From the IMG/VR virus record IMGVR_UViG_3300045988_088382: DNA of 55,782 nt. One strand, 5' to 3'. The stretch comes from a virus. The notes beneath the pieces are model-generated. The model did no database searches and had not been told where the DNA came from. It saw only the letters and a program-made list of their open reading frames with translations. The position numbers and the translations under genes are program-made. Positions within the stretch are counted from its first letter, which is position 1, and every line of letters starts with the position of its first letter. Positions 3,048-55,782 of the stretch are shown in pieces.

Positions 3048-4217
3048 TCAAGTGATAACCGTAGCAATCGGGTTATCGACGATGTACAGGGAGTTCACGC
3101 CAGACCCGGCAATCACGTCATCTCCCGCGCTGTCACGGATGATAAGTTTGTCCACGCCTGCCCTTGTATAATACCCGACATCGTATTCGCTGTAGTCATG
3201 CGCCGTCAGCGAATACCCGGCGTCACTGAACCATTTTAATTCAAGCGCACCGTCTCGGTTAATGTGGGCAAAGCAACCGCCAATCTCCGCGCACCAGCCC
3301 AGAATATCCCGATACGTAGCTTTGGCAAAGGCTTCCGGCGCAGACGAAACCGTTCTTTCGCCGTTCACCATTTGCGTAGAACCAAGGGTAACGCCTACGG
3401 CCTTACACACTTGGCCTACAAGGTTTTGAAGGGTCGTAGGAAAAGCGATAGACCCCTCTTTGTACTGGGTATCGAACAGGCTCATTGCGTCATAGGCGTC
3501 AATAGACAGCGTTTTTCGCGAGTTAAACACCGGCTTTTCTGCGTAAAACACGCCGAGCGGAACCATTTCGTAGATATCGGTGCTCGTCGGAGTGAAAACC
3601 ATAAGATTGTTTTCATCTTTGACGCCCGTGCCGCGTGTGCCCTTATGCCCGAAGCATACGCCGTAGTTCATCGTCTTCCACGCGATAGCCGCTTTTTGAA
3701 TCGGCGGCTCGTAAAACGCGAAATCTCCGGCTGTGAGTTCGCCGTTTCTGAATGTAAACTTCTGTGTTTGATTTTTCGTAAACACCAAGAGTTTATCATC
3801 GAGAAGCGCAAGCGCTTCTACCCGCTCGGTCACACCGCTTACAGCGGCATCGTTGAGCGTGAGAAACGGAGCTTTATCATTTCCGCGAATCCGAAAACTC
3901 CCGGTGTCGATTCTACACACGCAGTTAGGTGATTCGTAAATGACGTTCGTCCGAACCCCAAGATACGCCTTGAAAGCGCCGAAATCATATCCCGTCCATG
4001 TATTGTCATCGTTCAGGAGGTCAAAGGACAGCATCGCCGCCGAGCACCCGCCCGGTGCAAAATCCTCACCCTCATTAACGCTCGCCTGATAGCCGATGCC
4101 GCCGGAAGATATATTGATATCTCGTGGTGTTACAACCGCCTCGTCAAACAGAAGGAGGGGCAGTTGAAGCTCATCTTCTCGGATCGCTTCATGGAACGCC
4201 TCACTTACCGCGTACAT
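3048..4217 (-). CDS. tail-tip (Tal-position) structural protein
   Basis: ATG at 4217 preceded by AGGAGGGG; 390 aa. It is the second gene after the tape measure. Confidence 0.6.
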   Translation of the reverse strand: MYAVSEAFHEAIREDELQLPLLLFDEAVVTPRDINISSGGIGYQASVNEGEDFAPGGCSAAMLSFDLLNDDNTWTGYDFGAFKAYLGVRTNVIYESPNCVCRIDTGSFRIRGNDKAPFLTLNDAAVSGVTERVEALALLDDKLLVFTKNQTQKFTFRNGELTAGDFAFYEPPIQKAAIAWKTMNYGVCFGHKGTRGTGVKDENNLMVFTPTSTDIYEMVPLGVFYAEKPVFNSRKTLSIDAYDAMSLFDTQYKEGSIAFPTTLQNLVGQVCKAVGVTLGSTQMVNGERTVSSAPEAFAKATYRDILGWCAEIGGCFAHINRDGALELKWFSDAGYSLTAHDYSEYDVGYYTRAGVDKLIIRDSAGDDVIAGSGVNSLYIVDNPIATVIT

Positions 4218-4227
4218 CCTACCCCTC

Positions 4228-4602
4228 CTAAATTTCGATGATGTTGACCTTGAAATCGCCGATCCAGCGTTCTCTATTTGCGTCAACGCACTTCTTGGCT
4301 TCCCAATTTCGGTCGCCACAGTACGCGATAATCGTCTGCGCGCCCTCAATAGGGTCTGGATAGGTAAACTGAAATCGGTCGCCCTTATTCATAAGCCCGC
4401 CCATTTCCTTCATGGTCTCCCAGAAAATGCCGTTCCATTCCAGATTGACGTGACACTTCATCGCCACTTTGTTACGGCGAATGTCACCGCTGGCGTCACG
4501 CTCGCCAAGCGTGTCCAAGTCGCTTTGAGCGCCCTTGAAGGAAGAGGGATCAGGGATGGGAACACCGTTAATGGAGAACCCCATTTTGTAGTTGATAGCC
4601 AT
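4228..4602 (-). CDS. small tail component (Dit position)
   Basis: 124 aa; starts 4 nt after the tape-measure stop. Confidence 0.55.
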   Translation of the reverse strand: MAINYKMGFSINGVPIPDPSSFKGAQSDLDTLGERDASGDIRRNKVAMKCHVNLEWNGIFWETMKEMGGLMNKGDRFQFTYPDPIEGAQTIIAYCGDRNWEAKKCVDANRERWIGDFKVNIIEI

Positions 4603-4605
4603 CCC

Positions 4606-7600
4606 TTAACCCCCTGTCGTTCTTGCGTACAGTCTCGCGCTCTGGCTCTGCATGCGCCCCCATGCGGCGCTGGGCTCGGCTCTGGCGACAAATTCCTTGC
4701 TGGCCAGTCTACGCATAGCCTCGGTTTGCTGCTGCTGTGCGGAAACCATGCGTTCAATGGCACGGCTCACGGCGCGCTCGATACCAGCTTCGATCTGGTC
4801 ATTGTTCGCGACGGCGGTATGCCCGTTGATCGTTCCGACCAATTCAGGACCCGCCTCGCGCGCGAGGAACATCTGACCAGCGTCCGGGAAACCGCCGGAT
4901 GCAAAAGACCGGCCAGCCGGATTACCAAAGTTTTTGAAAATCCCGGATATCTTGTTCGCAGTCTTTGTAGACCACGATTTCAACCCGTTTCGGGAGCCGC
5001 CCGATGTGTCAATATTCACACCCGGAATAAGGTTTGCAATCGCCGTCGTGACCGACGTATACCCCTCTGCAATCGCGCCTGTGATGCCGCTGATAACGCC
5101 CTGACCAATGGCGCTACCGAGTGTCTGCGCCGCCGTAATAACCGGGTTATCCGATTTATTAAGCCAGTCTTTGAGCCATACCAAGGGGCTATCTACGCTC
5201 GTAGTAAGCCACGTAAACAGGTCACTGAGGATTTTGCCAAGCGTACCAATCGGATCATTGCCAAAGGTTTCCCAGTCAATGCCGTTTTCCGCAAAGTACG
5301 CTTTGATTTCATTAACGCGGTCTTTAATCCACGTAATTACGGGTCCGAAGATGGAAACGAGCGCGTTTCTACCCTCCGCCATGATCGTGGCAATCGGCCT
5401 GAAACCGAAGGCATCCTCAAAAGCATCATCAAACGGCTGTACGATATTGGTGTCCAGCCAAACACGGATGTCGTTAAAAACCGTGCTGTTTACGATTCCG
5501 TCATACACGCCTTGAATGATGTTGCCGCCCGCGCCGTCAATATACGGCTTAAAGTACGCGACAAGATCAGACCACATCTGCGAAAGAAACGGTGTAAACA
5601 TTTGCGTCGCGGCAACTGCCGCTTCACCCAGCGTGTTAAAGATGCCCGATACAATCTCACGGGCATTCGTCGCGTTAATCAAGCCTGAAAGCTCGGTTTT
5701 GAGGTCTTCCCCGATTTTCGCCCAGTCGGTTTCCTTAAACCAGTTATTAAAGCTGTTCAATGCGCCAGTCACGGTACCGTTGATCGCCCTTCCGATGCTC
5801 GCGCCCCATCCCGGCGTATTGATGAACCCAATGAACGTATCAAAGAGAAGCGTCACTTTTCGCGAGATGATCTCGCCGAGCGCATGGAAATTGATCTGGT
5901 TCAGCCCATTAGTGACGAGCGTCGAGATCTTTTCACCGATTTTTCTGGCATCGAGCTTGTTGAGAAAAGCCGCCAGGGTCTCAATGCCCGCGCTGAGTTT
6001 CTTGCCAAGATTGTTACCTATTTCAAAGGCGTTGACTTTCTCGATAATGCCGTTGACCTTAGCGGCCAGCAGGCTTCCAAGTCCCGCCCAATCTTGAGCG
6101 TTAATCGCGTCGCGAATCTGCTTGGTGAACGCGAGGATATCAGAATCAATACTGGATTCCTCGAACATCCCACTAATAGCCCCGCTACTACCGCCTCCGC
6201 CCCCGCTGTTTTTACTGGCGATGACGTTCAGCTCATCAAAGTCGGCCAATGCACCTTTTGCGGCTTTTCCTGCGCCGGACGCTGCCGCGCCAAACGCGGT
6301 CGCTTGATTCTTGGCTTTAATAAACACGCCGGAGCCGCCGAGCGCTGCAAACAGTTGATTGATTGCGTTGAGGAACTGGACAATTACGTTAGTCGCCGCC
6401 TGAATATAAGGGACGAACATGTTAATCAGCGGAGCCGCTGCCGCGCCAATGCTGTTGCGGATCAGTTGCAGCGCTGTAGACATGCTGTTTAGGCTGCTGA
6501 CAATCTGCTTGGAAAACGCCGATCCGCTAGCCTTAGCAAAGTTATAAAGGTTTGTGATGCCTTCCTTGAGCCCCTTATTGATTTGCGTTACCATTTGTCG
6601 GAACGTGCGCGTCACCGCCAAACGGCCAAGCCGCTTGAAGAACTTTCCAATCGCCGAGTAGGCGTTCATAACAGTCGTTGCAAAACTCTTAAAGGGGTAT
6701 ATCAGCGCTTGACCGACGACTTGCCCGATTTTCAGCACGCTGCTTCCTACGCTGCTAAGGATTTTGCTCACGCCCGAGACAATGCTGCTAAAGGCGCTCT
6801 TAATCACAGAAACCGCGCTGAGGAAGACGCTCTTTAGCGCGCCCGCGACTTTTCCAGCTATGGGTATCACCGCGTTCCCGATTTTACCGAGAACGTTTAT
6901 AACCCCTGAAAAAGCGCTACCTACAGTCTTGACAGCGGACATTGCCTTGCCGCCAAAGCTGTTTTCAAACTCCAAGCGCTTGACCTTTTCCCGCAGTTTA
7001 GGAAGCGTCTCTAGGAGCTTAACCTTTTCGCGCAGATTAGCCAATTCCTGATCCACTTCTGCGGATTGAGAGTACGCGCCGGAGCGGATTGCCTCTTCCT
7101 TGGCCTGCAATTTTTGAAGCGTCAGGTTTTCGGCAATGTATTCACGCATGACTTTAAGCTCCATGCGCCATTCCTCGCCCTTGTCCTGACCGGCAAAGCC
7201 CCATTCCTTTTCTTTTTGGAGCTTCGGAAGCGTTACGTACTCGCGCTTCAAATCCTGGATGGCCTTGATCTGCTCTCGAATCGCTTTAGCATGCTCTTGA
7301 GCGGCCTTTGCGGCTTTCATCTCTTTATCGTAGGCCGCCATGTATGCCGACGGACTGCCCGATTCCATCTGCCGGCCGTACAAGCCCTTGCCGTCATCCC
7401 GGAAAGAAAAATCCTTGATCCCGGACACTCGACGGCTTTTCTGATACGACCGCGCTATGATGTCAGCGATTTCTTCGTCCGACTGCCGCTTAAAGCTAGT
7501 CCTTGCTTCCTCCTGAGCCTGCAACCCGGCGAGCCGTTCTTCGTCCTTGGCAAGCCGAAGCCTGGCTTTTTCTCTCCGCACTTCTGCCGTGCGTTCGCGA

Positions 7601-41410: not shown

Positions 41411-42163
41411 TCAGGTTTCCATGCCCTCAATCAGTTCCGCAATACGCTGTTTCCCGGCTTCGTTATAACGGAAGCACGGAACCTGCTTATCGGAGTTCCG
41501 GCCTCTATCCAGCACCGTGATTCCGTATTGCTCCGTTTTCAAGCCGTGCTCTTTGGCAATCCTGCCGATCATGTTGGCTGATACGCCGAACATCTGCCCC
41601 AACTCCGTCGCCGTATACGTCTTCTCGACCGGCGGCCTGTACCCGGTCTTCACCCCGGCGTATTCCTCAATCATCGTGATGCCCAGCGTTTCCAGCGCGA
41701 CCGGCGACAGGTTGAAGTTCGATACCGCCTTACTCGCCGCCGCCAGCATCCGTGATTTCGCGTTTAACAGCATCGCCTTTGCCCGAACGTCTGCCGCTGT
41801 CTCCGCTTGCGGAACACTGTAGCTCCCGGTCTTGCGGATGCTCGGGATCACCTCATGCGTGATCCAGCGCTTGAAGGCTTTCGCTTCGGGCTTGCGGGAG
41901 CCGAGGACGAGCGTGTACAGGCCAGGTTCGTTGGTAACGGTCATATTTTGCATTCCGCCAGGGGTGTCGGTTGAAACTACACCCTTTTCATCGTCATCCA
42001 GCCTTGCTATTGCGTCTCGGGAATTGATGATACTCAACGCCCTGCACACATCCGACGCGACGAACCAAGGTTCGCCATTACATTCGACCACGCGAACGGC
42101 GCCAAACCGCTCGTTTTGAAAGGTCTTGACTAAATCGTGGGTTTCGTGATATACTTTATCCAT
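41411..42163 (-). CDS. antirepressor (BRO-N domain plus C-terminal Ant/KilAC-like domain)
   Basis: 250 aa. FGAVRVVECNGEPWFVASDVCRALS...RKPEAKAFKRWITHEVIPSIRKTG is the BRO-N signature. Confidence 0.8.
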   Translation of the reverse strand: MDKVYHETHDLVKTFQNERFGAVRVVECNGEPWFVASDVCRALSIINSRDAIARLDDDEKGVVSTDTPGGMQNMTVTNEPGLYTLVLGSRKPEAKAFKRWITHEVIPSIRKTGSYSVPQAETAADVRAKAMLLNAKSRMLAAASKAVSNFNLSPVALETLGITMIEEYAGVKTGYRPPVEKTYTATELGQMFGVSANMIGRIAKEHGLKTEQYGITVLDRGRNSDKQVPCFRYNEAGKQRIAELIEGMET

Positions 42164-42186
42164 AGAGACCCCCAGTCTTGTGTCTC

Positions 42187-42222
42187 CGCCCGGTGAAGTC
42201 TTGCGCCGGGCGGTCTTTTTTT
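42187..42222. other. GC hairpin ccgcccgg-N12-ccgggcgg with a T7 run on the plus strand
   Basis: Read directly. It sits between the HTH remnant and the antirepressor start. Confidence 0.5.
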
Positions 42223-42340
42223 ATTCCGTGGTTGCGAAAAGATAATCGAAACCGCAAGAAAACATCTCGCACAGCTTTCTACACTCGTTGATCGTAAAAT
42301 GACCGGTTTTGAGTTTGTTTTCATATCCGCGTCGAGCCAA
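42221..42340 (-). pseudogene. possible remnant of a Cro/DUF739-like HTH gene (C-terminal half only)
   Basis: The frame encodes ...YENKLKTGHFTINECRKLCEMFSCGFDYLFATTE, like the C-terminal half of small phage HTH regulators. Only a TTG start is available and there is no RBS. The track ORF 42130..42324 is in a different frame. Confidence 0.3.
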
Positions 42341-42383
42341 ACTGGCTATTCACGAACGTTGACTGGAACGGGAGGGTCTTGTT

Positions 42384-42539
42384 TTAGCTCTCCTTCTTTT
42401 TCTCGGGGCTGTCCATGCTAGTCTTCAACTGGCCAAACAACACGCCCGCCGCAAAAGCGTTCTGAATGGCTTCGGGGAAACTGACGAAAGTCTTGAGAAT
42501 ATCGACTTTCTCGTTTGCGACAACAGTATTTGCCTCCAC
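42384..42539 (-). CDS. small protein (51 aa), first gene of the leftward early operon
   Basis: GTG at 42539, 8 nt after GGAGGTG and 39 nt downstream of a consensus promoter. Not in the ORF track. Confidence 0.5.
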   Translation of the reverse strand: MEANTVVANEKVDILKTFVSFPEAIQNAFAAGVLFGQLKTSMDSPEKKKES

Positions 42540-42577
42540 AGTTGCGTCACCTCCGTTCTTTTTGCGCCTGTGAGTGC

Positions 42578-42606
42578 ATTATAGCTTCCTTTTCTGCGAT
42601 TGTCAA
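42578..42606 (-). promoter_or_regulatory. consensus promoter (leftward early)
   Basis: Minus strand TTGACA-17 nt-TATAAT. Confidence 0.8.
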
Positions 42607-42649
42607 TACATTCGGTTTAAATTTTTGCATTTACAAGTGCATATCACGA

Positions 42650-42678
42650 TTTACATTTTTACAAGTCAGTGATATAAT
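42650..42678 (+). promoter_or_regulatory. promoter of XRE regulator 1 (rightward)
   Basis: TTTACA-17 nt-TATAAT with an extended -10 TG. TTACAAGT-type repeats lie around it. Confidence 0.75.
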
Positions 42679-42709
42679 GGATTCGGAAACACAAAAGGAG
42701 GTGACCATA

Positions 42710-43096
42710 ATGACAATAGGCGAGCGAATCAGACAAGTACGCAAAGAGGCTGGCAGAAAAATAAGTCAAGCAGATTTTGCAGCTTCGCTCGGGCTGACAC
42801 GCCCACAGCTCATGACATATGAGACTGGACGAGTTGTTCCCCAGCGCAGCGTGCTGATGCTGATCAGCCAGCAATACAGCATCCGGATCGAGTGGCTGGA
42901 AACCGGCGAAGAGCCAATGCGACTTCCTCCGAGCGAGGATGACGAGATCGTTGACGAGGTTCTGGCGGGCTCAAACGAGTTTGTTAAAGCCGTCATACGC
43001 GGCATCGCCAAGACCCCCGGCGGCTGGGAGATGATGCGTGAGGTTTTTAACGCCATACAAGCCGAGCTGGACAAGCAAAAGAAGCCGAGCGATTAA
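42710..43096 (+). CDS. XRE-family HTH regulator 1 (candidate CI-like repressor)
   Basis: ATG at 42710 after AAAGGAGGTG; 128 aa; IGERIRQVRKEAGRKISQADFAASLGLTRPQLMTYETG. Confidence 0.8.
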   Translation: MTIGERIRQVRKEAGRKISQADFAASLGLTRPQLMTYETGRVVPQRSVLMLISQQYSIRIEWLETGEEPMRLPPSEDDEIVDEVLAGSNEFVKAVIRGIAKTPGGWEMMREVFNAIQAELDKQKKPSD

Positions 43097-43121
43097 TCGC
43101 CCGGCTTTCCTTTTGCATTTT

Positions 43122-43262
43122 TTAAGTATATTGCCTCTTTTCCGTCTGCGCCGAATATGCGCGTTCAAGGATTTTCCAGACGCGCTGAATAACAGCGTCG
43201 TCCTCCACTTTATCCAGCAGGCTCAAAATACAATGGATCATAACTTCACGCGGATATTTCAT
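43122..43262 (-). CDS. small hypothetical protein (46 aa)
   Basis: MKYPREVMIHCILSLLDKVEDDAVIQRVWKILERAY...; ATG 9 nt after GAGGAGG. Not in the ORF track. Confidence 0.45.
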   Translation of the reverse strand: MKYPREVMIHCILSLLDKVEDDAVIQRVWKILERAYSAQTEKRQYT

Positions 43263-43433
43263 GCAATACCGCCTCCTCTGCTACTATGATACCCACATCG
43301 CAGACAAGATATACAGAAAAATAACGTCGAATCAAGAAAATCGTTCGCTGTATTTCTCAGTTTTGCTCTTCACACTTCGCTGATTCGTCAACTAGTTTTG
43401 GGAAATAAAATTCGCATTTTGCTAATTTCCCCG

Positions 43434-43462
43434 TTGATTTCGCGACTAATCAATGGTATCAT
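43434..43462 (+). promoter_or_regulatory. promoter of XRE regulator 2
   Basis: TTGATT-17 nt-TATCAT with an extended -10 TG. Confidence 0.65.
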
Positions 43463-43488
43463 ATGGGTAGAGAAAAGAGGTGATCTTT

Positions 43489-43857
43489 ATGACATTCGGT
43501 GAACGGCTTATCGAACGAAGAGGCGAAAAAGGCTTTAATCAAAAGGAATTTGCGGCGGCTTTGGGGGTAACTCCGACTAGGCTAAACTATTGGGAAAAGA
43601 ATAAGAGAGAACCCGATGTTGAAATGCTAAAGAAGATAGCATCTATCCTTGAAGTAAGCACCGACGAGCTGATCGGCTTGCCAAGCCGGGACGCAGATCC
43701 CCAAACCAAAGAAGAACTGAAAGAAGAATTTGCGGAGATGGCCTTAAAGTTCCGCAAAGCTGGCGTAAGCAAAAAAAAGTTCATCCTGCAAATCATAGAA
43801 ATGCCGGATGAACTGTTCGATGAATTAGCCGCTTATTTTCAAGGCGGTCTCAAGTGA
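43489..43857 (+). CDS. XRE-family HTH regulator 2
   Basis: ATG at 43489; 122 aa; FGERLIERRGEKGFNQKEFAAALGVTPTRLNYWEKNK. Confidence 0.8.
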   Translation: MTFGERLIERRGEKGFNQKEFAAALGVTPTRLNYWEKNKREPDVEMLKKIASILEVSTDELIGLPSRDADPQTKEELKEEFAEMALKFRKAGVSKKKFILQIIEMPDELFDELAAYFQGGLK

Positions 43858-44050
43858 CATTGGCGTGCCTGTGGGTCTCTGCTTCGTAAAGAAGCATCGC
43901 CTGTGCAGCGCCAAGCAGGCAGTAAATGTTTTCTCCGTCGATTAGCATTTCGGCAATCGCGGAGATTTCCTTTCTTTCCCGATCGAATTCAACGGGAATG
44001 GTTTTCCGTTCCGGGTACATGGGTTTGTCTTTTAAGAAGTTCTCTTTCAT
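43850..44050 (-). CDS. hypothetical protein (66 aa), convergent with regulator 2 and divergent from regulator 3
   Basis: ATG at 44050 after TAAAGGAGAG. 8-nt tail-to-tail overlap with 43489..43857. Confidence 0.55.
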   Translation of the reverse strand: MKENFLKDKPMYPERKTIPVEFDRERKEISAIAEMLIDGENIYCLLGAAQAMLLYEAETHRHANVT

Positions 44051-44096
44051 AGCCAATCTCTCCTTTATCTTAGTATAGTATAGATACACGGCAGGC

Positions 44097-44105
44097 ATTT
44101 TAGCA
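44097..44105 (-). promoter_or_regulatory. extended -10 element TGcTAAAAT (leftward)
   Basis: The reverse complement of attttagca; 47 nt upstream of the ATG at 44050. Confidence 0.4.
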
Positions 44106-44115
44106 CCTACTTTTG

Positions 44116-44124
44116 TGTTAAAAT
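44116..44124 (+). promoter_or_regulatory. extended -10 element TGtTAAAAT (rightward, for regulator 3)
   Basis: Read directly; 31 nt upstream of the ATG at 44155. Confidence 0.45.
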
Positions 44125-44154
44125 GTGTTCAGAAATACAAAGGAGGTATTACAT

Positions 44155-44544
44155 ATGGCCGATATCGGAACGAACATCGCGAACGCAAGGAAAAAAGCAG
44201 GGATGACTCAAGAAGATTTGGCCTTAAAGGTTGGGTATAAAACAAGGTCATCTATCAATAAAATCGAAATGGGAAAACGCGACCTGCCGCAAAGGAAAAT
44301 CGCGGAGATCGCCTACGCTCTTGGCGTGTCCCCTGCGTCCCTTTTAGAAAGTCCCGATGCTGAACAGCAAGAAGCCCCCGCTTCGAGTAAAGCGGAGGCG
44401 CTTGATTCATTCGAGTCGGTCAAGGCCGCACTCATGCGGGTCATCGACGAGCGGACAGGCGGAAGGCCGCTGACCGTTCAGGAGCGAACGGTCATTGAGT
44501 CTGCGTTCAAGCTGCTGTCCACTATGTTCGACGATCCAGAGTGA
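44155..44544 (+). CDS. XRE-family HTH regulator 3
   Basis: ATG at 44155 after AAAGGAGGT; 129 aa; IGTNIANARKKAGMTQEDLALKVGYKTRSSINKIEMGK. Confidence 0.8.
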   Translation: MADIGTNIANARKKAGMTQEDLALKVGYKTRSSINKIEMGKRDLPQRKIAEIAYALGVSPASLLESPDAEQQEAPASSKAEALDSFESVKAALMRVIDERTGGRPLTVQERTVIESAFKLLSTMFDDPE

Positions 44545-44885
44545 TACTTTCACGCCGTGCCGGGTACGCCTGATAAGTTCATCCAGCCAAGTTTGATCCT
44601 CGTGCGTCATCCTAATCGCTCCTTTCAACGGGTTCTATGCGGCCATACGCCGCTTGAATCGAATCGGTGGATGCCTTTGACATCCGCGCCCGTAGAACGC
44701 GCTACAGGGCGAATATCAAAGCCATCGCTTCTTTGTCCAAGTATACCGCTAAACGAGCCGAATATGCGCGCTTCGACAAAGACATTCACAAACCCGTATG
44801 AAAATATAAAAATCGCCAAACACCCCGGATTGTTATGACATATAGCAATCGGCCTGACTCTAAAATCCTATCGTTTTGATTGGTT

Positions 44886-45123
44886 GGTGTAGGGTGTGTA
44901 GGGTTTACACTATAATACTCTAAGGTGCGCGTGGGGGCGCGGGTGTAGGGATTAATTATGTAAACCCTACACCACCCTACACCAGAGGCTAAAATCGCCG
45001 ATTTTCACCGCGTAAAAAGTTCGTGCAGACCCTACACCGCCTACACCCGTAAAAAGTTTGTGCAAATGCCTACACTCCCTACACCCGTAAAAAGTTTGTG
45101 CAAATGCCTACACTCCCTACACC
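44886..45123. repeat. array L2: 11 CCTACAC(C)-type boxes (3 inverted, 8 forward), a 24-bp inverted repeat and a 2 x 37-nt tandem repeat, abutting int
   Basis: The inverted repeat 44886..44909 / 44959..44983 flanks 49 nt. The tandem cgtaaaaagtttgtgcaaatgcctacactccctacac lies at 45048..45084 and 45085..45121. Paralogous to L1 at 21349..21804. Confidence 0.9.
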
Positions 45124-45175
45124 AGCGCGCTTCGTCACGTCGGTTTGGGGTGCGATTTTAAGGAGGATTGAGCGT

Positions 45176-46348
45176 ATGCCCGAGAGGAAAAAGATGTCTG
45201 AAAAGACCGATAAGCGGTATCGCGCGAAGGTCACTGTCCCCGGCATTGACAAGCCCGTTTACATCAGCGCGAAGACCCGCCGGGAGCTCGAGCAAAAGAA
45301 AAAGGACGTACTGGATGAATACGTCCACGGTGTTAAGGTGCAGGATAAGCCGTTTGTCGATATGATCATCGAGTGGTTCACCGTGGTTAAAAAGCCTAAG
45401 ATCAAGCGCAACTCGACGCTTAATAGCTGGCGCTCTACGATCAACTGCCACGTTCTGCCCTGCTTCTCTGACCGCAAGCTGACCAGCGCTGTCACGCGCC
45501 AAGATCTCCAAGCCTGCCTTGACAAGCTCGCGGGTTTCTCGGCGTCCATAATTACCGCAGCCTATTCCGCGCTAAAACAGACCTGTCAATACGCAATCGC
45601 CGAAGGTATTATCCTCCGCGATCCCTCTATTCTGCTGTCTAAACCCTCCACGCCTGCGGCCAAGTCGAGGGACTATCTGACGCAGGATCAGGAACGCGCG
45701 CTCCTGAAAGAAGCGGAATCCTCGGAATACGGCCTGCTGATCTATCTGCTCTACTACACCGGCTGTCGAAGAGGCGAAGCGCTCGGCTTGATGTGGAAGG
45801 ACGTCAACTGGGAGAAGAAGACAATCCGCATTTGTCGGGCGCTGGATGCGACGCTACCAAAGGATTCGCCTGATCGGCTTGCGCATCAGAAGAATAAGGC
45901 CGCTGACCGTGTTGTGCCCGTTCCTGACGCGCTCCTGGCCGTTCTGCGCGCCGAGCGCGGCCTACCTGACCATTATGTGCTGTCCAATGCCAGCGCGCCT
46001 GTAAGCGCCTCCAGCGCCATCACGCGCTGGAATGCGATGATGCTTGACTGCGGCTACGCCCGGAAGCGTGCTGATAACACGCCGAAGGACGGAATCAGAA
46101 CGCACGTGGATGTCGATATTACGCCGCACTGGCTGCGCCACCACTATATAACATCCTGCGTCATGGCAGGCTTGCGCCCGGAGGTTACGATGAATATTGT
46201 AGGTCATTCCGAGTATCAAACGACGCTGGGCATTTATACGCACCTCATGCATAATGACGGCTGGAATCCGACGCTCCTTAGCGACGCGATTAAAAACGAG
46301 GTTGCCGAAAGGTTGCCAGATTCCGCAAAGTTCAAGCTGATTTTCTAA
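45176..46348 (+). CDS. int: tyrosine integrase
   Basis: ATG at 45176 after AGGAGGA; 390 aa. C-terminal catalytic region with RRGEAL..., HWLRHHY and GHSEYQTTLGIYTH (R..HxxR..Y). The N-terminal KRYRAKVTVPG... resembles an arm-binding domain. Confidence 0.9.
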   Translation: MPERKKMSEKTDKRYRAKVTVPGIDKPVYISAKTRRELEQKKKDVLDEYVHGVKVQDKPFVDMIIEWFTVVKKPKIKRNSTLNSWRSTINCHVLPCFSDRKLTSAVTRQDLQACLDKLAGFSASIITAAYSALKQTCQYAIAEGIILRDPSILLSKPSTPAAKSRDYLTQDQERALLKEAESSEYGLLIYLLYYTGCRRGEALGLMWKDVNWEKKTIRICRALDATLPKDSPDRLAHQKNKAADRVVPVPDALLAVLRAERGLPDHYVLSNASAPVSASSAITRWNAMMLDCGYARKRADNTPKDGIRTHVDVDITPHWLRHHYITSCVMAGLRPEVTMNIVGHSEYQTTLGIYTHLMHNDGWNPTLLSDAIKNEVAERLPDSAKFKLIF

Positions 46349-46528
46349 TAATATCTAGAAAAATTGCGATGCGGATGTCTATCTAGAACAAATACGAACA
46401 GGGTTACACCCTGTTACAGCGTTGTGCAGTTTTTCCTTGTAATGCCTAGAAAAAAGTGTCATAGAGTGTAATCTTCTGAATCCTGTTTTAGTTGCCAAAA
46501 AGTTGCCGAAGGTTGCCAAAAGGTTGCC
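46301..46528. repeat. six GTTGCC boxes in two helically phased clusters (candidate Int/accessory sites, attP region)
   Basis: GTTGCC at 46301 and 46312 (inside the int 3' end), and at 46491, 46502, 46512 and 46523 (spacings 11, 10, 11). CTAGAA x3 and the small hairpin cagggt-tac-accctg lie between them. Confidence 0.6.
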
Positions 46529-46530
46529 GG

Positions 46531-46570
46531 GAAAAAGGGCATTGCGCGTATGCAATGCCCTTGAATTTTT
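46531..46570 (-). terminator. bidirectional intrinsic terminator between int and the accessory cassette
   Basis: gggcattgc-gcgtat-gcaatgccc flanked by gaaaaa (a T-run on the minus strand) and ttgaattttt. Confidence 0.75.
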
Positions 46571-46572
46571 AT

Positions 46573-47148
46573 TCAGTTGTGCTTCACAATGTACTCGTAG
46601 TACGCCTGAACTTTGTCCGGGTTCGCGTCCTTATCGTGGATAAATGCCTTAGCCATCTCCGCAAAGAAGCCCGGATCGGTTACGCCGTAACGCTTTGCCA
46701 CTTCGGAGTAATCCGAGTACATAGCGTTCATCATGGCGTAAAACTCGGCAAACTGCTTGCCCGTGGTCTGAATGCCGTATTTCTTGGCAAACGGCCTCAC
46801 GTCATCGGGCTTCCATTTACCACCCCTGCCTACTGCCGGGTCTTCGTTCACCATGCTGGCAACCCATTCCTCGGCAGTCTGCTCTGTAAAAGGCTGGTCG
46901 TCGTCTTCGTACCGTCTGCTCTTTCGATCCCGGTCAGCGTAGCCGCCGTAATACCCGCTATGCCGGCCGTAGTCTTCATAGCGACGACGGTCATAGTCCG
47001 TATAGGGGCGACGGTCATAATCGTCGTAATCGCGATAACGCCCGTAGTCTTCGCGGTCATCATTCCGATCACGGCGAGGGTACTTTTCGGGCATGTCGCT
47101 CTTCGGCTCTCTGCGCATCATAGCCATTTGGAGTGTTTTACTCTTCAT
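46573..47148 (-). CDS. Arg/Asp/Tyr-rich protein with conserved-looking C-terminal domain (191 aa)
   Basis: ATG at 47148, 6 nt after GAGGAGGTG. N-terminal YPRRDRNDDREDYGRYRDYDDYDRRPYTDYDRRRYEDYGR. C-terminal ...FYAMMNAMYSDYSEVAKRYGV...DKDANPDKVQAYYEYIVKHN. Confidence 0.7.
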   Translation of the reverse strand: MKSKTLQMAMMRREPKSDMPEKYPRRDRNDDREDYGRYRDYDDYDRRPYTDYDRRRYEDYGRHSGYYGGYADRDRKSRRYEDDDQPFTEQTAEEWVASMVNEDPAVGRGGKWKPDDVRPFAKKYGIQTTGKQFAEFYAMMNAMYSDYSEVAKRYGVTDPGFFAEMAKAFIHDKDANPDKVQAYYEYIVKHN

Positions 47149-47161
47149 CGCCTTCACCTCC

Positions 47162-47551
47162 TCACGCCTGCACGGGAGCGGTGCCGTTAATAGCGCTCAA
47201 GGCGTTATTCGGCGCACAGCACGGGTCGCCCATTAGTCGGAACGCTCCGCCTGTCGCGGTCGTAACAACTCTTGTGCTGTACCTCGTTCGGGTACGGATC
47301 ATGGCCGCCGTTACCTGTGCGCAGTTACGCTTCGTCAGCGGATAGGTAGCCGTGCCTGTCCCGATGGTAATGACGACGGGCGCGTTGATGATAGTCGCGT
47401 CGGGTATCGCTTGTGCGATGACAAGACAATACTTCTCGCCGTTCTCATAGCTGCCCGCCGGAATATTGACCGTCAGCACGCCGTTAGCATATGTCACGGC
47501 CTGGCTGATCACAAACCGAGGGCATACGCTGCAAATCGGTTTACATGCCAT
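47162..47551 (-). CDS. Cys-capped hypothetical protein (129 aa)
   Basis: RBS TAAGGAGGA. N-terminal MACKPICSVCPRF and C-terminal GDPCCAPNN flank a beta-rich core. Confidence 0.7.
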   Translation of the reverse strand: MACKPICSVCPRFVISQAVTYANGVLTVNIPAGSYENGEKYCLVIAQAIPDATIINAPVVITIGTGTATYPLTKRNCAQVTAAMIRTRTRYSTRVVTTATGGAFRLMGDPCCAPNNALSAINGTAPVQA

Positions 47552-47570
47552 AATAAGTCCTCCTTACTCA

Positions 47571-47600
47571 GGAAGGGTCTCAGCTTCCCGAGACCCTTCC
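47571..47600. other. perfect 11-bp stem-loop in the intergenic gap
   Basis: ggaagggtctc-agcttccc-gagacccttcc; no adjacent U-run on either strand. Confidence 0.7.
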
Positions 47601-47609
47601 GAAAATCAA

Positions 47610-48446
47610 TCAGGCACAACCGCAGCTGTTGCCCGTCGGCGTGCAAACGTTCGGGTTGGGAACGATGTAGGCCGGATACGGGCACGGGCTGAGTTTGTCG
47701 ATGATCGCCTGCGTCTGCGCCGCCTGAGAAGCGGTGATGTAGGCGTTCTGCGCCTGCTGAGAGGCCGCGAATTTCAGATCGCTGTTCTGCGCGGTCAGCG
47801 TGGCAATCTTATCCTGTAGCGCTTCTACGCGGTTCTGCGTCAGCGCATCGAGGATAGCGCGGGTGCCCGCCGACTGATTGTCCGTGATGTTCCGCGCGGC
47901 ATCGGCGATAGCGCGCTGGGTAGCGCAAGTATCGGTTGCCATCGTATACTTCACGTCAGCGATCATCTGCCGGTTCTCGCAGCAGCAATTCGCAAGCTGG
48001 TTAGCAAGCGCCGTCTGCCCGTTAGAGAGCTGCCAAGTGCTGTTCTGGACGGCGTTCTCCAACCCGTTAATCAACTGCGCATTCTGGTAGCCAAGCGTAC
48101 ACACAGCGTTGTTTACGCTGGCAAAACCAGCGGCCAAGTTGCTGTTTACACCGTTGACCTGATCCAACTGGTTATAGCCCAAGTTGCACAGGCCACTGTT
48201 AATGCCGTCCATTTTGCGTTCAAGCGTCGCAAAGTCGGTCGCAAGATTGAAACCTTCCACAGAAGCAGCGCCGCTTCCGCCGCCAAAGCCGCCCCGACCA
48301 AAGCCGTTACCGCCCCAGCCAAACAGCAGGGCAAACACAACGATGATCCAAATCCAAGAGTTGCCACCCCAGCCGTCCATACAGCCGTTGTTATTGTTAC
48401 CCTCATTCTGACCGGCAACGTACCCAGTCATAAAATCGTCACTCAT
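47610..48446 (-). CDS. membrane-anchored Asn/Gln/Ala-rich protein with Cys motifs (278 aa)
   Basis: RBS AGAAGGGAG. N-terminal Gly-rich/TM segment GWGGNSWIWIIVVFALLFGWGGNGFGRGGFGGGSG, a long N/Q/A-rich helical region, the CCCENR motif, and a C-terminal CPYPAYIVPNPNVCTPTGNSCGCA. Confidence 0.75.
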   Translation of the reverse strand: MSDDFMTGYVAGQNEGNNNNGCMDGWGGNSWIWIIVVFALLFGWGGNGFGRGGFGGGSGAASVEGFNLATDFATLERKMDGINSGLCNLGYNQLDQVNGVNSNLAAGFASVNNAVCTLGYQNAQLINGLENAVQNSTWQLSNGQTALANQLANCCCENRQMIADVKYTMATDTCATQRAIADAARNITDNQSAGTRAILDALTQNRVEALQDKIATLTAQNSDLKFAASQQAQNAYITASQAAQTQAIIDKLSPCPYPAYIVPNPNVCTPTGNSCGCA

Positions 48447-48498
48447 AGATTTTTCTCCCTTCTTTATTTGCTAAACGGGCCGTCCGCTCCCGTTCGCA

Positions 48499-48744
48499 TC
48501 ATCTAAGCCCCATTTGCCTAATGAGGTCTTCCGGGTTAATTCCGCGTTCCCGGCACATATTGCGCGCATACTTCTCAATTCCCTGCGGCCCTTGCCTCAT
48601 CATAATGTCAAGGCCAAGTCGCATTTGCGGGTTAGACTGCGCCATCTGGCTGACGATCTGCATCGGGTTTCCCCCGCCTTGCATTGCGCGAGCCATTTGC
48701 CCCAGAGGGGTTGTGCTCAGTAACAGGTTCAGTGGGTTCGTCAT
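48499..48744 (-). CDS. Met/Gln-rich small protein (81 aa)
   Basis: ATG at 48744; NPMQIVSQMAQSNPQMRLGLDIMMRQGPQGIEKYARNMCRERGINPEDLIRQMG. The first 113 nt overlap the upstream ORF. Confidence 0.55.
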   Translation of the reverse strand: MTNPLNLLLSTTPLGQMARAMQGGGNPMQIVSQMAQSNPQMRLGLDIMMRQGPQGIEKYARNMCRERGINPEDLIRQMGLR

Positions 48745-49135
48745 ATGCCTTCAACCTTTCATTCACGTCGTTCACAAATCGGTTAAACTGAGAGACCGTC
48801 ACATACTCTTGCTGCTCAGGCTTCGCGTTCTCAAGCCGATATACGGCTAAATCAGCTTTACCCGTGTTTAGGTTAAATTGGCGGCGATAGATCACGCCAT
48901 GCGCCATATCCCATCCGAAGATCGGCGTTCCGTTGAAATCGACTTGCATTCCGTACATCTCACTAACGTCGCTTACCGCTCGCATGGCATACGACGGTAC
49001 GGATTGCTGTACAGGGGCTTGCTGAACGGGTGCCGACTGAACCGGCATTTGAGCCTGTTGTATGCCGGGCTGCACAGGCGTTTGACCGTACCACTGTTGC
49101 GCCAAATACGGATTGTAATTCGGGTAGTTGGCCAC
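48632..49135 (-). CDS. Gln/Pro-rich protein (167 aa)
   Basis: GTG at 49135, 6 nt after GAAGGAGGTG. ANYPNYNPYLAQQWYGQTPVQPGIQQAQMPVQSAPVQQAPVQQ followed by a globular part. Confidence 0.6.
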   Translation of the reverse strand: MANYPNYNPYLAQQWYGQTPVQPGIQQAQMPVQSAPVQQAPVQQSVPSYAMRAVSDVSEMYGMQVDFNGTPIFGWDMAHGVIYRRQFNLNTGKADLAVYRLENAKPEQQEYVTVSQFNRFVNDVNERLKAYDEPTEPVTEHNPSGANGSRNARRGKPDADRQPDGAV

Positions 49136-49254
49136 GATGCACACCTCCTTCATACCCTCATTTTTGCATAAAAAAAGGACGCGCACCTATCAGATGCACG
49201 TCAGATTTATATCGGTTTTTTGTCAGTCCGTGAACGGAAAGTCTTTAAGGAATT

Positions 49255-49992
49255 TCATTGATTAGGGTCGTCTGATTTGCGCCTATGCGCTGGCGTGATG
49301 GGCAGAGACAGCAGCCCCCAGCCCTTATAGTGATACAAAGATCCCTTGCACGATGGGGCACCTCGCATGCTTGTCGCGATCTTTTTGAAACCGCTTGTTA
49401 TACGTTTTGCGGCGATATCTCGCTCCTCTTCCGGAGTTTGCGGCTCAAAGAGCCGATAATTGTTGCGTGCCCAGTCGAGCAGATTGGTGCATGGTACTTG
49501 ATTCCCGCTCGGATCGACCAGCACCCAGATCTTGCTTCCTCGGTTTTGCGGCCCTCGCTGACCCTCCGGGATCGCAAGCGCCGCTTGCACGCCGCGCGGT
49601 TGCAGCTCGTCCATCTGCGCCTTAACGGAAGCATCTTCCGCGCGTCGCCTTTTCGCATCCTCTCCCCACTTGCGTGGTTTGTCATGTGCCGACTTCGCCG
49701 CGCGGAGACGACGGCAAGCGTCCGAGCACGTCACGCGATTGTCTGACCGATACGAGTCAAACAGCCTCCCGCAGATCACGCATGCTTGTGTGATCTTGCC
49801 AACCGCCTTGCACCCGCATGATGTCGTCTTGCCAGAGATCAGGTTGCTCGCGTAGTACGACTTAACGCTGCCACATCGCAGGCACTCCGCATCGCATCGG
49901 GTCTTAGACGACTCTTCCGGCAAACGCCAGAGCCGTAGGACTTTGAGATCGCCGAACACGTCGCCGACCTCCATATTGAGCTTGCGCGGCAT
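49255..49992 (-). CDS. zinc-finger protein (245 aa)
   Basis: RBS GGGAGG. N-terminal VGDVFGDLKVLRL...CDAECLRCGSVKSYYASNLISGKTTSCGC motif, common in phage DNA-binding proteins; a second Cys cluster CVICG..CSDAC. Confidence 0.65.
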   Translation of the reverse strand: MPRKLNMEVGDVFGDLKVLRLWRLPEESSKTRCDAECLRCGSVKSYYASNLISGKTTSCGCKAVGKITQACVICGRLFDSYRSDNRVTCSDACRRLRAAKSAHDKPRKWGEDAKRRRAEDASVKAQMDELQPRGVQAALAIPEGQRGPQNRGSKIWVLVDPSGNQVPCTNLLDWARNNYRLFEPQTPEEERDIAAKRITSGFKKIATSMRGAPSCKGSLYHYKGWGLLSLPITPAHRRKSDDPNQ

Positions 49993-51271: not shown

Positions 51272-51601
51272 TTACACGCTTGCCTCCTCTACCACTACGG
51301 GCGCGGTGCTCTCCAACTTTGCAATCTCAGCGTTCACAAGCTCGACAAGCTCATCTGTATCCAACTTATATCCGTGCGCGTCAAGCCGCTCCTTTACCCA
51401 CGCCAGCTTCTCTTCACCGCGCCCGGAGCCGGTGTACAACTTCTCGGCGGCGAAAACAAGGATAGACACGAGGTCGCGGATTTCACGGCGCTGGTCAAGC
51501 GTCGTCTTGGCCTTGATCCACGGGACGACATACCGCGTAATCAGCGCGGCCACGAGGACGATAAGCGCCTGAAAGATGGGGGTCAGGTCGATACTAGACA
51601 T
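51272..51601 (-). CDS. holin (LL-H-family-like)
   Basis: ATG at 51601, 6 nt after GTGAGG; 109 aa. N-terminal TM IFQALIVLVAALITRYVV followed by GSGRGEEKLAWVKERL. Confidence 0.65.
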   Translation of the reverse strand: MSSIDLTPIFQALIVLVAALITRYVVPWIKAKTTLDQRREIRDLVSILVFAAEKLYTGSGRGEEKLAWVKERLDAHGYKLDTDELVELVNAEIAKLESTAPVVVEEASV

Positions 51602-51640
51602 AAATAGCCTCACTTTCTGCCCGGTCTTTACCGGGCAACG

Positions 51641-52078: not shown

Positions 52079-52849
52079 TCAATCCTCCGCAAGTGCCCAC
52101 GCGCCGCCCAGCGTGATATACACGCCGTCGCTCCTGCGCAGGGTCGTCGTGGTCTGTTCTCCCGGATCGCCCGTCTCGCCCTGATCTCCACTTTCTGGCG
52201 GCGCATCCTCGACCAGATACTCGCTCGACATATACCCGGCCTCGCCGCTTGCCAGCGCGCCGAAGACCCAGCCCGTGCCGCCCGCCTCGCGGATGATGTT
52301 CACCCGCGCGCCGTTCGCGGCTCTGGCGATGACCTTTGACTTTGTGCTTGCGCCCTCGCGGATGTTGAGATATCCGCTGGTGATGTTCACCGCCGCGTTG
52401 CCAAAAATCTTTTCCGATTCGCTCACTTCCGCCTTTCCTCCTTCCGAATAGCCCACACCGATCATCCGATGCACCCCCAGCCCGTTCCACCCCGCTTTTT
52501 CCGTCAGCGCGGTTTCGACCACACCGCCCCGGCTCTTGCTTGAGTGGATCACCGTGCCGCGCTCCGTCACCATCCCGGTGTGATTCACGTCGCCCGTGCC
52601 AACGCCCATGAACGCCAGCATCCCCGGCTTCGCGCCGGAAATGCCCGCCTGCCGCCAGATCAAATGGCGATACTTCGGCGCACTGTCAAAGCTGTTCCAA
52701 AGCTCGTTCGTCCCTGCCGTCGTGTAACGCTTGTCGCCGCCCGGCGCTGTGCGGATGACCTTCTTGATGAGGTTGATGCAGTCCAGCTCGCTGTACGCCG
52801 TCCCGATCAGCCCCCGCGCCGTGCGGATGGCCTCGCTTGTTTCAATCAT
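52079..52849 (-). CDS. endolysin: NlpC/P60 peptidase plus SH3-like wall-binding domain
   Basis: 256 aa; RBS AAAGGAGGAAAAG. Catalytic Cys context YSELDCINLI, His context VNHTGMV. C-terminal SH3-like GYLNIREGASTKSKVIARAANGARVNII. Confidence 0.85.
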   Translation of the reverse strand: MIETSEAIRTARGLIGTAYSELDCINLIKKVIRTAPGGDKRYTTAGTNELWNSFDSAPKYRHLIWRQAGISGAKPGMLAFMGVGTGDVNHTGMVTERGTVIHSSKSRGGVVETALTEKAGWNGLGVHRMIGVGYSEGGKAEVSESEKIFGNAAVNITSGYLNIREGASTKSKVIARAANGARVNIIREAGGTGWVFGALASGEAGYMSSEYLVEDAPPESGDQGETGDPGEQTTTTLRRSDGVYITLGGAWALAED

Positions 52850-55590: not shown

Positions 55591-55782
55591 TTAAGCATAC
55601 ACAATCTCGCTCATTTCGAGGATGCATTGCAGCAGGGTTTCGTTCTGGTTTTCAAGCGTCTTGATGCGTTCTTCCTGCGTCGGCTTCGGTTCTCCCGGTT
55701 CCGGCACTTCCGGCTCGACGTACACGCTGCCGTCGTCGGAGAGCTGCACCGCGTTGTCAAGGGTGCGGTAAACGGTCGTGTA
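55591..55782 (-). CDS. C-terminal part of the junction-spanning ORF (same gene as 1..217)
   Basis: The frame is continuous with 1..217 once the 55-bp overlap is collapsed (354 nt in total). It ends ...TQEERIKTLENQNETLLQCILEMSEIVYA with TAA at 55591. Confidence 0.6.
   Translation of the reverse strand, partial: YTTVYRTLDNAVQLSDDGSVYVEPEVPEPGEPKPTQEERIKTLENQNETLLQCILEMSEIVYA
55728..55782. repeat. terminal direct repeat copy 2 (identical to 1..55)
   Basis: Exact 55/55 identity. Confidence 0.95.

Follow-up and report, generated by a model that had tools for sequence, protein, structure and literature searches.

Morons are, in the description that Hendrix and colleagues are said to have given, autonomous accessory transcription units of lambdoid phages; classical examples comprise one or two genes of varied content. 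Phages also encode membrane-anchored superinfection-exclusion proteins, such as lactococcal Sie2009 and Ltp of S. thermophilus, which are single, small and located in lysogeny modules. Here we analyze a cassette of five genes (P1 to P5) at positions 46573-49135 of a 55,782-nucleotide viral sequence, IMG/VR record IMGVR_UViG_3300045988_088382; this whole stretch is referred to below as the window. A sequence-only reading had proposed the cassette as a candidate undescribed system. Comparison with homologous loci identifies it, on sequence evidence, as a multi-gene moron of tailed phages of gut anaerobes: conserved, co-inherited, transcriptionally insulated (with a promoter assigned by consensus only), mobile and dispensable. 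Like other morons, it is bracketed by predicted terminators, carries a promoter-like element, occupies varied insertion sites in unrelated phages, is present or absent between near-identical phages, usually lies at the prophage end next to the attachment site, and appears to be dispensable for lytic growth. Unlike them, it is a fixed set of five or six genes that has a stem-loop conserved in its interior and is often accompanied by a dedicated regulator; it recurs in thousands of phages and matches its host phage in composition. With Sie2009 and Ltp it shares a phage-encoded, putatively membrane-anchored, non-enzymatic product, an accessory position and separate transcription (from predicted signals in the case of the cassette), but it has no sequence similarity to these single small proteins. 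The cassette behaves like a moron, yet no characterized system has such a composition, and we regard it as categorically new in kind.

The gene content is as the sequence-only reading had described it: five co-oriented, tightly spaced open reading frames (ORFs) on the minus strand, with a good Shine-Dalgarno match at every start (Table 1). The intergenic gaps are 52 nt (P2-P3), 58 nt (P3-P4, occupied by a stem-loop) and 13 nt (P4-P5), while P1 and P2, read in different frames, share 113 nt (48632-48744), compared with 0-41 nt in relatives; the long, poorly conserved C-terminal tail of P1 in the window may be the result of a lost stop codon. The features of composition were likewise found where they had been reported: the Gly-rich hydrophobic segment, CCCENR motif and Cys tail of P3, the MACKPICSVC...PCC arrangement of P4 and the R/D/Y-rich N-terminus of P5. 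Comparative sequence data identify all five as real genes, not chance ORFs, because P3, P4 and P5 have many homologous clusters and the gene order is kept in other phages.

Table 1. Genes and sequence features of the cassette and its flanks (window coordinates).
Feature	Position	Strand	Remarks
P1, 167 aa	48632-49135	-	GTG start behind GAAGGAGG; homologues begin at the same M-x-YPNY position
P2, 81 aa	48499-48744	-	ORF with Shine-Dalgarno
P3, 278 aa	47610-48446	-	ORF with Shine-Dalgarno
P4, 129 aa	47162-47551	-	ORF with Shine-Dalgarno
P5, 191 aa	46573-47148	-	ORF with Shine-Dalgarno
Predicted upstream terminator hairpin	49178-49202	-	11 pairs, T-run tail CTTTTTTTAT; immediately upstream of cassette
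Promoter-like box TTTTTATGCAAAAAT	49160-49174	-	T-run, then TRTG-type extended -10; without -35
Intercistronic stem-loop	47571-47600	-	11-bp stem GGAAGGGTCTC / GAGACCCTTCC; directly after P3 stop; no T-run; -26.2 kcal/mol
Predicted terminal bidirectional terminator hairpin	46535-46562	.	12 pairs; ends cassette, faces int
Probable attP region	46349-46534	.	Between int and cassette; break of int-linked prophage similarity
Small helix-turn-helix (HTH) gene, 75 aa	51028-51255	-	Pfam GerE 24.5 bits (cut-off 23.5), HTH_38, Sigma70_r4_2

We sampled 80 GTDB loci (of 179 confirmed stretches, from species-representative genomes) and 80 IMG/VR loci (of at least 562) and analyzed them with iterated hidden Markov models (HMMs). 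The order P1-P2-P3-P4-P5 is kept in nearly all of the ~165 loci retrieved: the five genes form a conserved, co-occurring unit and are not orphans. Typical lengths are ~125-185 aa for P1, ~70-85 for P2, ~240-290 for P3, ~130-155 for position 4 and ~180-250 for position 5, and identity to the window proteins falls from P4 (~58%) through P3 (~45%), P5 (~34%) and P2 (~29%) to P1 (~21%). Judged from record titles, the hosts are mostly Oscillospiraceae, Ruminococcus, Lachnospiraceae, Acutalibacteraceae and other Clostridia, together with Bacilli, with isolates of Anaerotruncus colihominis and Muriventricola aceti among them. In A. colihominis DSM 17241, the prophage copy lies at ~1.677-1.679 Mb of NZ_CP102255. 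A few contigs are Bacteroidota (host labels of metagenome-assembled genomes may be wrong), among them a 557-kb scaffold titled Prevotella in which the host glpK gene lies ~6 kb downstream of the cassette. The sequence-only reading had stated that proteins of this type co-occur in Clostridia genomes; co-occurrence holds in Clostridia and beyond, but among the loci examined the cassette was never found outside a phage or prophage context.

The same gene set is present in deposited phages. It was found in six Clostridium perfringens phages (in CPD1, our HMMs assign CPD1_036 to P1, CPD1_037 to P2, CPD1_039 to P3 and CPD1_040 to the window type of P4) and in lemur and rodent gut phages. Several Crassvirales encode a full-length, divergent P3 that keeps the hydrophobic anchor, CCC, ASQQAQ, PxPAY and the Cys tail, and is annotated as 'spike protein/glycoprotein'. 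Butyrivibrio is a non-sporulating genus. The cassette is carried by the Butyrivibrio phage Ceridwen, which has been observed in the lytic cycle only (PMC7372960). Given this distribution, the function of the cassette cannot depend on sporulation, a Gram-positive wall or lysogeny. Whatever this function may be, the cassette is under strong selection in many phage lineages. Searching the literature for DUF7841 (the family of P5), BclA together with prophages, crAss 'spike protein' and the names of the C. perfringens phages turned up no account of these genes.

Two observations on P3 concern the limits of the family. A borderline tblastn match (E = 1e-3, 28% identity) was obtained between CPD1 P3 and Caudoviricetes sp. 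vir335 (BK063680.1 / NC_134205.1, 24577-24990), the host of which is given as Methanomassiliicoccales; if the match is real, the family reaches beyond bacterial hosts, to gut methanogenic archaea. P3 on 4-6 kb 'Bacteriophage sp.' records was considered as part of a small autonomous Microviridae-like element with an H-like pilot protein, and this candidate was rejected: the records are linear, unverified scaffold fragments of larger phages.

The cassette carries its own predicted transcription signals, all of them assigned by pattern or consensus matches only. The terminator facing int that the sequence-only reading had noticed is the hairpin after P5, to which we add a second one upstream of P1 (Table 1). 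Terminator-like hairpins occur upstream of P1 in 49 of 137 non-redundant loci and after the final gene of the cassette in 43 of 126, compared with 45 of 480 random windows. The upstream hairpin leads straight into a T-run and then RTGnnAnAAT (e.g. TTTTTTTATGCAAAAAT), a motif that we take to be the TRTG-type extended -10 element of Gram-positive promoters, as in Bacillus, without -35. It was found in 47 of 137 cassette upstream regions vs 15 of 685 controls. The box in the window lies ~10 nt upstream of the P1 Shine-Dalgarno and ~25 nt from the GTG start, and is the only perfect match to the motif in the window. The element is kept even at insertion sites within the head genes, as in Dulem virus 35, or amid early genes, as in the C. 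perfringens phages. A classical sigma-70 -35/-10 promoter upstream of P1 was also considered; it showed no enrichment, and the extended -10 motif was followed instead.

The third signal is internal. Hairpins of at least -15 kcal/mol strength are present at the P3-P4 junction in 68% of 133 loci, compared with 23% of random windows (p = 2e-15), and we infer that the stem-loop serves differential expression or transcript stabilization. Together with the terminator and extended -10 element, it provides a signature useful for annotating the cassette. The commonest gene just upstream of P1 encodes a protein of 75-85 aa that belongs to one of two families (55 and 15 loci); a representative of the larger family matches Sigma70_r4 (26.7 bits, cut-off 24.1), while the smaller has no Pfam match and is region-4-like by eye only. 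In the window, the small HTH gene lies 1.8 kb upstream of the cassette, with a 121-aa ORF, an XRE gene and an HNH-like gene intervening; its product is a possible cassette-associated regulator, a link that we infer here from the other loci.

The sequence-only reading had placed the cassette in the classic moron position, and this is borne out: its usual site is between the lysis genes and int, i.e. the prophage end, in the window it is bracketed by predicted terminators, and in the prophage it would be found at the end opposite int. Among large genes, endolysins most often stand nearest on the upstream side, and integrases on either flank; the frequency of HNH endonucleases nearby suggests homing-endonuclease traffic around the cassette. 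In a minority of loci the neighbors are minor-head, scaffold or capsid genes (~8% lie between portal/MuF or terS and scaffold/capsid genes). Dulem virus 35 has the cassette between its portal/minor-capsid genes and its major capsid gene, crAss-like cr116_1 between lysis/terS genes and the scaffold and major capsid protein genes, and the C. perfringens phages among early and recombination genes. In four IMG/VR contigs, the block from int to the cassette (window ~44106-49233) is 96-97% identical, while the neighboring regions are 82-89% identical or unaligned, and the homology break with related phages falls at 49225-49233, at the upstream terminator of the cassette. The cassette moves between genome positions as a unit.

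Natural loss of the cassette is seen in C. perfringens phages. The cassette is carried by vB_CpeS-17DYC, CPD1 and their relatives but is cleanly deleted from phiCP13O, which matches vB_CpeS-17DYC in both flanks at 96-98% identity. What phiCP13O retains is the terminator with its T-run, joined directly to the 3' remainder of a sixth gene (P6); unrelated sequence has taken the place of the stretch that holds an antirepressor variant and P1 up to the 5' portion of P6. Phages phiCP34O, phiCP9O, phiCP39-O and phiCP26F show the same ~50% coverage of the cassette region as phiCP13O (PMC10353432). Because these cassette-less phages are isolated and plaque-forming, the genome comparison indicates that the cassette is dispensable for particle production and plaque-forming lytic growth.

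What, then, could such a unit do in the cell? P3, the signature protein, provides the clearest structural clues. It begins with an acidic tail of ~30 aa, a Trp-flanked hydrophobic core of 13-15 residues and a Gly-rich linker; across 135 homologues the core has a mean Kyte-Doolittle value of 2.05 over 15 residues, with Gly/Asn-rich, nearly uncharged flanks. The sequence-only reading had called this segment a membrane anchor, and the conserved segment is best read as a putative one; inspection of P1, P2, P4 and P5 revealed no signal peptide. The linker is followed by Gly/Cys motifs (xxCxLGY twice, the invariant CCC and C174), which suggest a Cys- or metal-stabilized helical region, and then by a coiled coil and a Pro/Cys-rich tail. 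The conserved residues are the invariant CCC (154-156), C87, C116, C174, a PxPAYxVPNP motif and the Cys tail (alignments A1, A10). An AlphaFold2 (AF2) model predicts helices at 31-41, 66-126 and 147-252, with a mean predicted local distance difference test score (pLDDT) of 56 and values >90 only at ~200-250. P3 corresponds to phrog_16490 (E = 2.1e-46, residues 13-273 vs profile 15-277 of 286), of the category 'unknown function'. There are >7,356 homologous clusters at 90% identity, none of them named, and an exhaustive profile search gave 3,074 representatives at 50% identity, all stand-alone proteins of ~170-340 aa. The P3 profile had no significant match in the PDB, and a Foldseek comparison of the low-confidence model with BFVD gave no meaningful match. 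Co-variation of P3 with the type of P4 placed the informative columns in the P3 N-tail; this signal is confounded by phylogeny and was not used as evidence of contact.

An N-terminal anchor, coiled coils and conserved Cys near lysis genes raise the possibility of a lysis accessory, in which P3 would work with holin and endolysin, either by a spanin-like, fusion-like or pore-forming action or by regulating the timing of lysis, and would be modulated by the other proteins. The i-spanin Rz of lambda has the same three features, and the Gly-rich hydrophobic segment of P3 also recalls glycine zippers or fusion peptides. Upstream of the cassette, endolysins are found more often than any other neighbor, and in the window a holin (51272-51613) and an amidase (52079-52849) lie ~2 kb upstream of the cassette. 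However, most hosts are monoderm Clostridia, which need no spanin, and neither a lipoprotein partner (P1, P2, P4 and P5 have no signal or lipobox on sequence inspection) nor sequence similarity to Rz/Rz1 was found. Unlike the spanins, the cassette comprises five proteins with their own transcription signals and is also found far from lysis genes; the window phage already has its holin and amidase, and cassette-less phages still form plaques. The adjacency is explained equally well by insertion at the end of the late operon, and we consider a lysis role very unlikely.

P4 is, by sequence, the most conserved protein of the set: homologues are 33-68% identical to the window protein, mostly 55-68% (alignment A4). 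It has an N-terminal C-x3-C-x2-C motif (C3, C7, C10), a conserved C42 and a PCC near the C-terminus, and these conserved Cys may form a metal site. None of its 4,675 homologous clusters at 90% identity is named. P4 had no Pfam or PDB match by profile; its all-beta AF2 model (pLDDT 48) is unusable, and Foldseek of this low-confidence model against the PDB returned nothing meaningful. P5 consists of an R/D/Y/G-rich disordered N-terminal half and a helical C-terminal DUF7841 domain (alignment A8; PF25223, residues 80-185, 75 bits vs a cut-off of 25.2 bits, E = 7.4e-21). Its 115 homologous clusters at 90% identity all carry PF25223 only and none is named, and the literature search found no paper mentioning DUF7841.

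Positions 4 and 5 are each occupied by one of two families without detectable mutual similarity (hhalign), and proteins recognizable at both positions are present in 152 of 166 loci. The pair of the window (its P4 family with DUF7841) is the minority (30 loci), compared with 106 loci for the other pair and 10 and 6 for the mixed pairs. RD(S/x)xGRY-like motifs in disordered regions are common to both position-5 families. The alternative, commoner P4 family had no significant PDB match by profile; in 6 of 47 members it matches BclA_C (PF18573), the best at 5e-7 and 30.1 bits vs the threshold of 38. Position 5 is often followed by a sixth small gene, which is HExxH metallopeptidase-like, Cys/His papain-like or of another kind. 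In crAss-like cr116_1 (L168), small HExxH proteins (4159-4506 and 6739-7134) flank the P3-like 'spike' gene, in parallel with the sixth gene of the Firmicutes loci.

The BclA_C matches bear on the proposal of the sequence-only reading that the cassette builds a coat-, exosporium- or surface-like self-assembled layer that remodels the envelope or spore of the lysogen. Coat and exosporium proteins assemble in the mother-cell cytoplasm and have no signal peptides, as is true of P1, P2, P4 and P5; the Cys-, Gly-, Tyr- and Gln/Asn-rich composition, the many Clostridia hosts and the site at the prophage end would also fit. The commoner cassettes recall BclA, the exosporium nap glycoprotein of Bacillus, and C1q/TNF fibers in that a weakly BclA_C-like protein at position 4 accompanies P3 with its putative anchor and long stalk, so that the two would look like an anchored stalk bearing a jelly-roll knob. 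However, the match is sub-threshold and is not to the window P4 family, there are no collagen-like repeats and no exosporium leader, stalk and knob would be separate polypeptides, and the hosts include non-sporulators. None of the window proteins matched a coat or exosporium family (Pfam, NCBIfam, PDB profile), so that these sub-threshold matches are the sole link to such layers. Nor does the distribution agree with a restriction to spore-forming hosts, since homologues occur in Crassvirales, the Butyrivibrio phage, phages observed only in the lytic cycle and the Prevotella-titled scaffold. The early-gene site in C. perfringens phages also argues against such a layer, as does the upstream box, which resembles a housekeeping-sigma extended -10 and not a clear mother-cell sigma promoter. 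The layer now appears highly improbable.

P1 and P2 are the two remaining proteins. P1 has a Tyr/Pro/Gln-rich low-complexity N-terminus, a beta-rich domain of ~55 aa and a C-terminal helix with a charged tail; its family, which invariably precedes P2 and P3, comprises 155 ORFs from 167 sources, and profile searches gave no Pfam, PHROG or PDB match. P2, a helical protein rich in Met, Gln and Asn, contains repeated NP..Q.M motifs together with a conserved ARN..KE.G motif; its family (112 ORFs) always lies between P1 and P3, and it had no family or PDB match, the top PDB match being a designed protein (not significant). A chaperone-like role for P2 is speculation. The sequence-only reading had seen no resemblance to enzymes, regulators, toxins or virion parts in any of the five proteins; Pfam, NCBIfam, PHROGs, PADLOC and the PDB agree, also for defense families, and gave no confident match to a known pathway or virion component, only to DUF7841 and phrog_16490, which are families without an assigned function.

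Such compositions would be compatible with an intracellular organizing scaffold or condensate, formed at the membrane by the low-complexity P1 and P5 with the anchored P3, that organizes replication or assembly or sequesters a host factor (e.g. of cell division) via P4. Prion-like or R/D/Y/G-rich low-complexity regions are present in three of the five proteins, an RDSxGRY-type motif recurs in both of the unrelated P5 families, the strong conservation of P4 suggests a conserved target, and optional small HExxH or Cys/His peptidase-like genes accompany the cassette. Membrane-anchored organizers of phage replication exist, such as p16.7 of phi29. The cassette is dispensable, however, and family searches recognized no nucleic-acid- or host-protein-binding domain, which leaves the scaffold with a low probability.

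A stalk with a jelly-roll knob is also the classic design of a fiber, and the loci beside head genes call for consideration of a non-essential virion accessory. P3 would then be a coiled-coil fiber that decorates capsid or tail, bears P4 (or the BclA-C/C1q-like protein) as its distal knob and serves adhesion in the gut; in another version, the proteins would be dispensable capsid cargo ejected with the DNA, the P3 segment entering the target membrane. Besides the weak BclA_C match of the alternative P4, several points fit: depositors annotated the Crassvirales P3 homologues as 'spike protein/glycoprotein' or 'viral fiber'; in ~8% of loci, and in the crAss-like copy, portal/MuF or terS stands on one side and scaffold/capsid genes on the other; in the window the cassette is co-oriented with the late genes; cross-links could form through the Cys-rich ends once release has taken place; loss of the cassette would be no obstacle, since decoration proteins are typically dispensable; and the virion cargo of crAss001 includes a protein with a transmembrane helix (PMC10172136). 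The phiX174 H pilot protein offers a similar comparison: P3 shares its Gly-rich hydrophobic N-terminus and long Gln/Asn-rich helices, some copies of the cassette stand beside head genes, and H is the top, non-significant PDB match of the P5 profile (E = 0.047). However, there is no significant similarity to H, and the cassette is dispensable and also found outside structural operons.

Against a place in the virion, the cassette brings its promoter-like box, its terminators and often its regulator to any insertion site, and in C. perfringens phages it stands among early and recombination genes. The Trp-flanked hydrophobic anchor, kept in thousands of homologues, is atypical of a soluble fiber, and P4 is highly conserved, whereas receptor-binding tips usually diversify. 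Profile searches found no structural PHROG or PDB match for P1-P5. The crAss001 head fibers were examined as homologues of the Crassvirales 'spike' P3 and rejected: gp21 and gp29 are small (~100 aa) and unrelated, and crAss001 has no P3 match. The literature search found no virion proteome for any cassette-bearing phage. Taken together, we judge the virion accessory to be quite unlikely.

A membrane-anchored, self-assembling array made of the same parts in the infected or lysogenic cell would be an unlikely, if slightly stronger, candidate. In this array, P3 would form coiled-coil stalks, P4 jelly-roll/beta-sandwich heads (or C1q/BclA-like heads in relatives), P1 and P5 low-complexity adaptors, with trimming by small dedicated peptidases and control by the cassette's own sigma-region-4-like regulator. 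If true, it would be a 'split' TNF/BclA-type fiber layer common to thousands of gut phages of Firmicutes and Bacteroidota, and an unrecognized kind of phage-built structure.

The reading that we tentatively prefer is that of an autonomous accessory cassette whose products form a membrane-anchored complex in infected or lysogenic cells and perhaps exclude other phages. Its autonomy, its site at the prophage end, its associated regulator and its occurrence both in phages seen only in the lytic cycle and in prophages argue for an accessory function in the infected or lysogenic cell. P1-P5 would assemble on the cytoplasmic membrane, with P3 as a membrane-anchored coiled-coil scaffold, and the stem-loop after P3 would cause P1-P3 to be made in excess over P4-P5. 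P4 could be a conserved, Cys- or metal-stabilized beta-sandwich that acts as the working end, for which a BclA-C/C1q-like domain would stand in in most relatives. P1 and P5, with their low-complexity tails, would act as adaptors, and the small helical P2 would be a partner of P3 (adaptor or chaperone). The complex as a whole might perform a membrane-level accessory function that favors the resident phage. Among such functions we rank exclusion of or defense against other phages first and takeover of a conserved, membrane-associated host target second; taken on its own, exclusion or defense at the DNA-entry step is a doubtful proposition.

Several points weigh against the preferred complex. No component is homologous to a known exclusion, defense, anti-defense or lysis protein; in PADLOC-DB v2, P3 had only coiled-coil-level matches (PDC-M40C, 1.8e-4, 19 bits; the ZorA tail, 6e-3) and the other proteins none. 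Five or six low-complexity-rich proteins without an enzymatic domain would be unusual for an exclusion system. The evidence for a complex of P1-P5 is conserved synteny only, and both AF2 models are poor; no fusion of P3 to a partner was found among the 150 top representatives and the local ORFs, except for one degenerate P3-P5 fusion. The hydrophobic core of P3 is short and its flanks are nearly uncharged, so that hydropathy gives no orientation; the promoter is a consensus match only; and some copies adjoin scaffold and capsid genes. The fusion is a single ORF in Anaerotruncus colihominis JM4-15 (L080, 10157-10915) in which the last third of P3 runs into the N-terminal portion of P5 and P4 is absent; it is apparently a decayed prophage copy of the cassette.

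The cassette is one of the larger conserved blocks of dark matter in gut phage genomes, and its function would matter for how gut phages interact with one another and with their hosts. Cultivable C. perfringens phages occur naturally in both states, cassette-bearing and cassette-less, which makes this function directly testable.

The window itself begins and ends with the same 55 nt (positions 1-55 and 55728-55782), and it is therefore a complete circular phage genome of ~55.7 kb, the terminal identity being an assembler overlap. Upstream of the cassette, on the same strand, are genes for a tail fiber, an amidase, a holin, the LuxR/sigma-r4-like HTH protein, an XRE regulator and an HNH-like protein. 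The tRNA and Rfam scans of the window gave no matches. The integrase gene (45098-46348, plus strand; phrog_1, E = 3.5e-56) lies on the other side. In a prophage with an 89%-identical int, similarity stops at window position 46370, 22 nt past the int stop, and is followed by toxin-antitoxin and HsdR genes; attP therefore probably lies between int and the cassette (Table 1), and the cassette would in consequence lie at the prophage end opposite int once the phage is integrated. An 11-bp repeat (AGTTGCCAAAA, 3.6 tandem copies, 46490-46528), located between the int stop and the cassette terminator, probably represents arm-type sites of attP. GGCAAC-type copies of the repeat are also found near the 3' end of int. 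At the 5' edge of the integrase ORF, a 38-bp unit is present in 3.1 tandem copies (91% matches, 45006-45123), which may be regulatory or recombinase-binding repeats.

The gene directly upstream of the cassette (49255-49992, minus strand) encodes an HNH-endonuclease-like protein of 245 aa with weak matches to phrog_374/1271, and this segment is unaligned in the closest relatives (L169-L172). A protein with an N-terminal Cys-rich motif, similar by eye to that of this HNH-like product, is inserted between P2 and P3 in CPD1. Beyond int, GC content is 0.46-0.49 and GC skew about zero over the plus-strand genes of the lysogeny module (42000-45000), compared with ~0.53 GC and negative skew elsewhere. 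In the same region, CTTTTGTGTTAAAAT (44110-44124, plus strand) precedes an XRE repressor-like gene (44125-44544) with a T-run and TRTG extended -10 in the same layout as the cassette box, and both boxes may be housekeeping-sigma promoters active in the lysogen.

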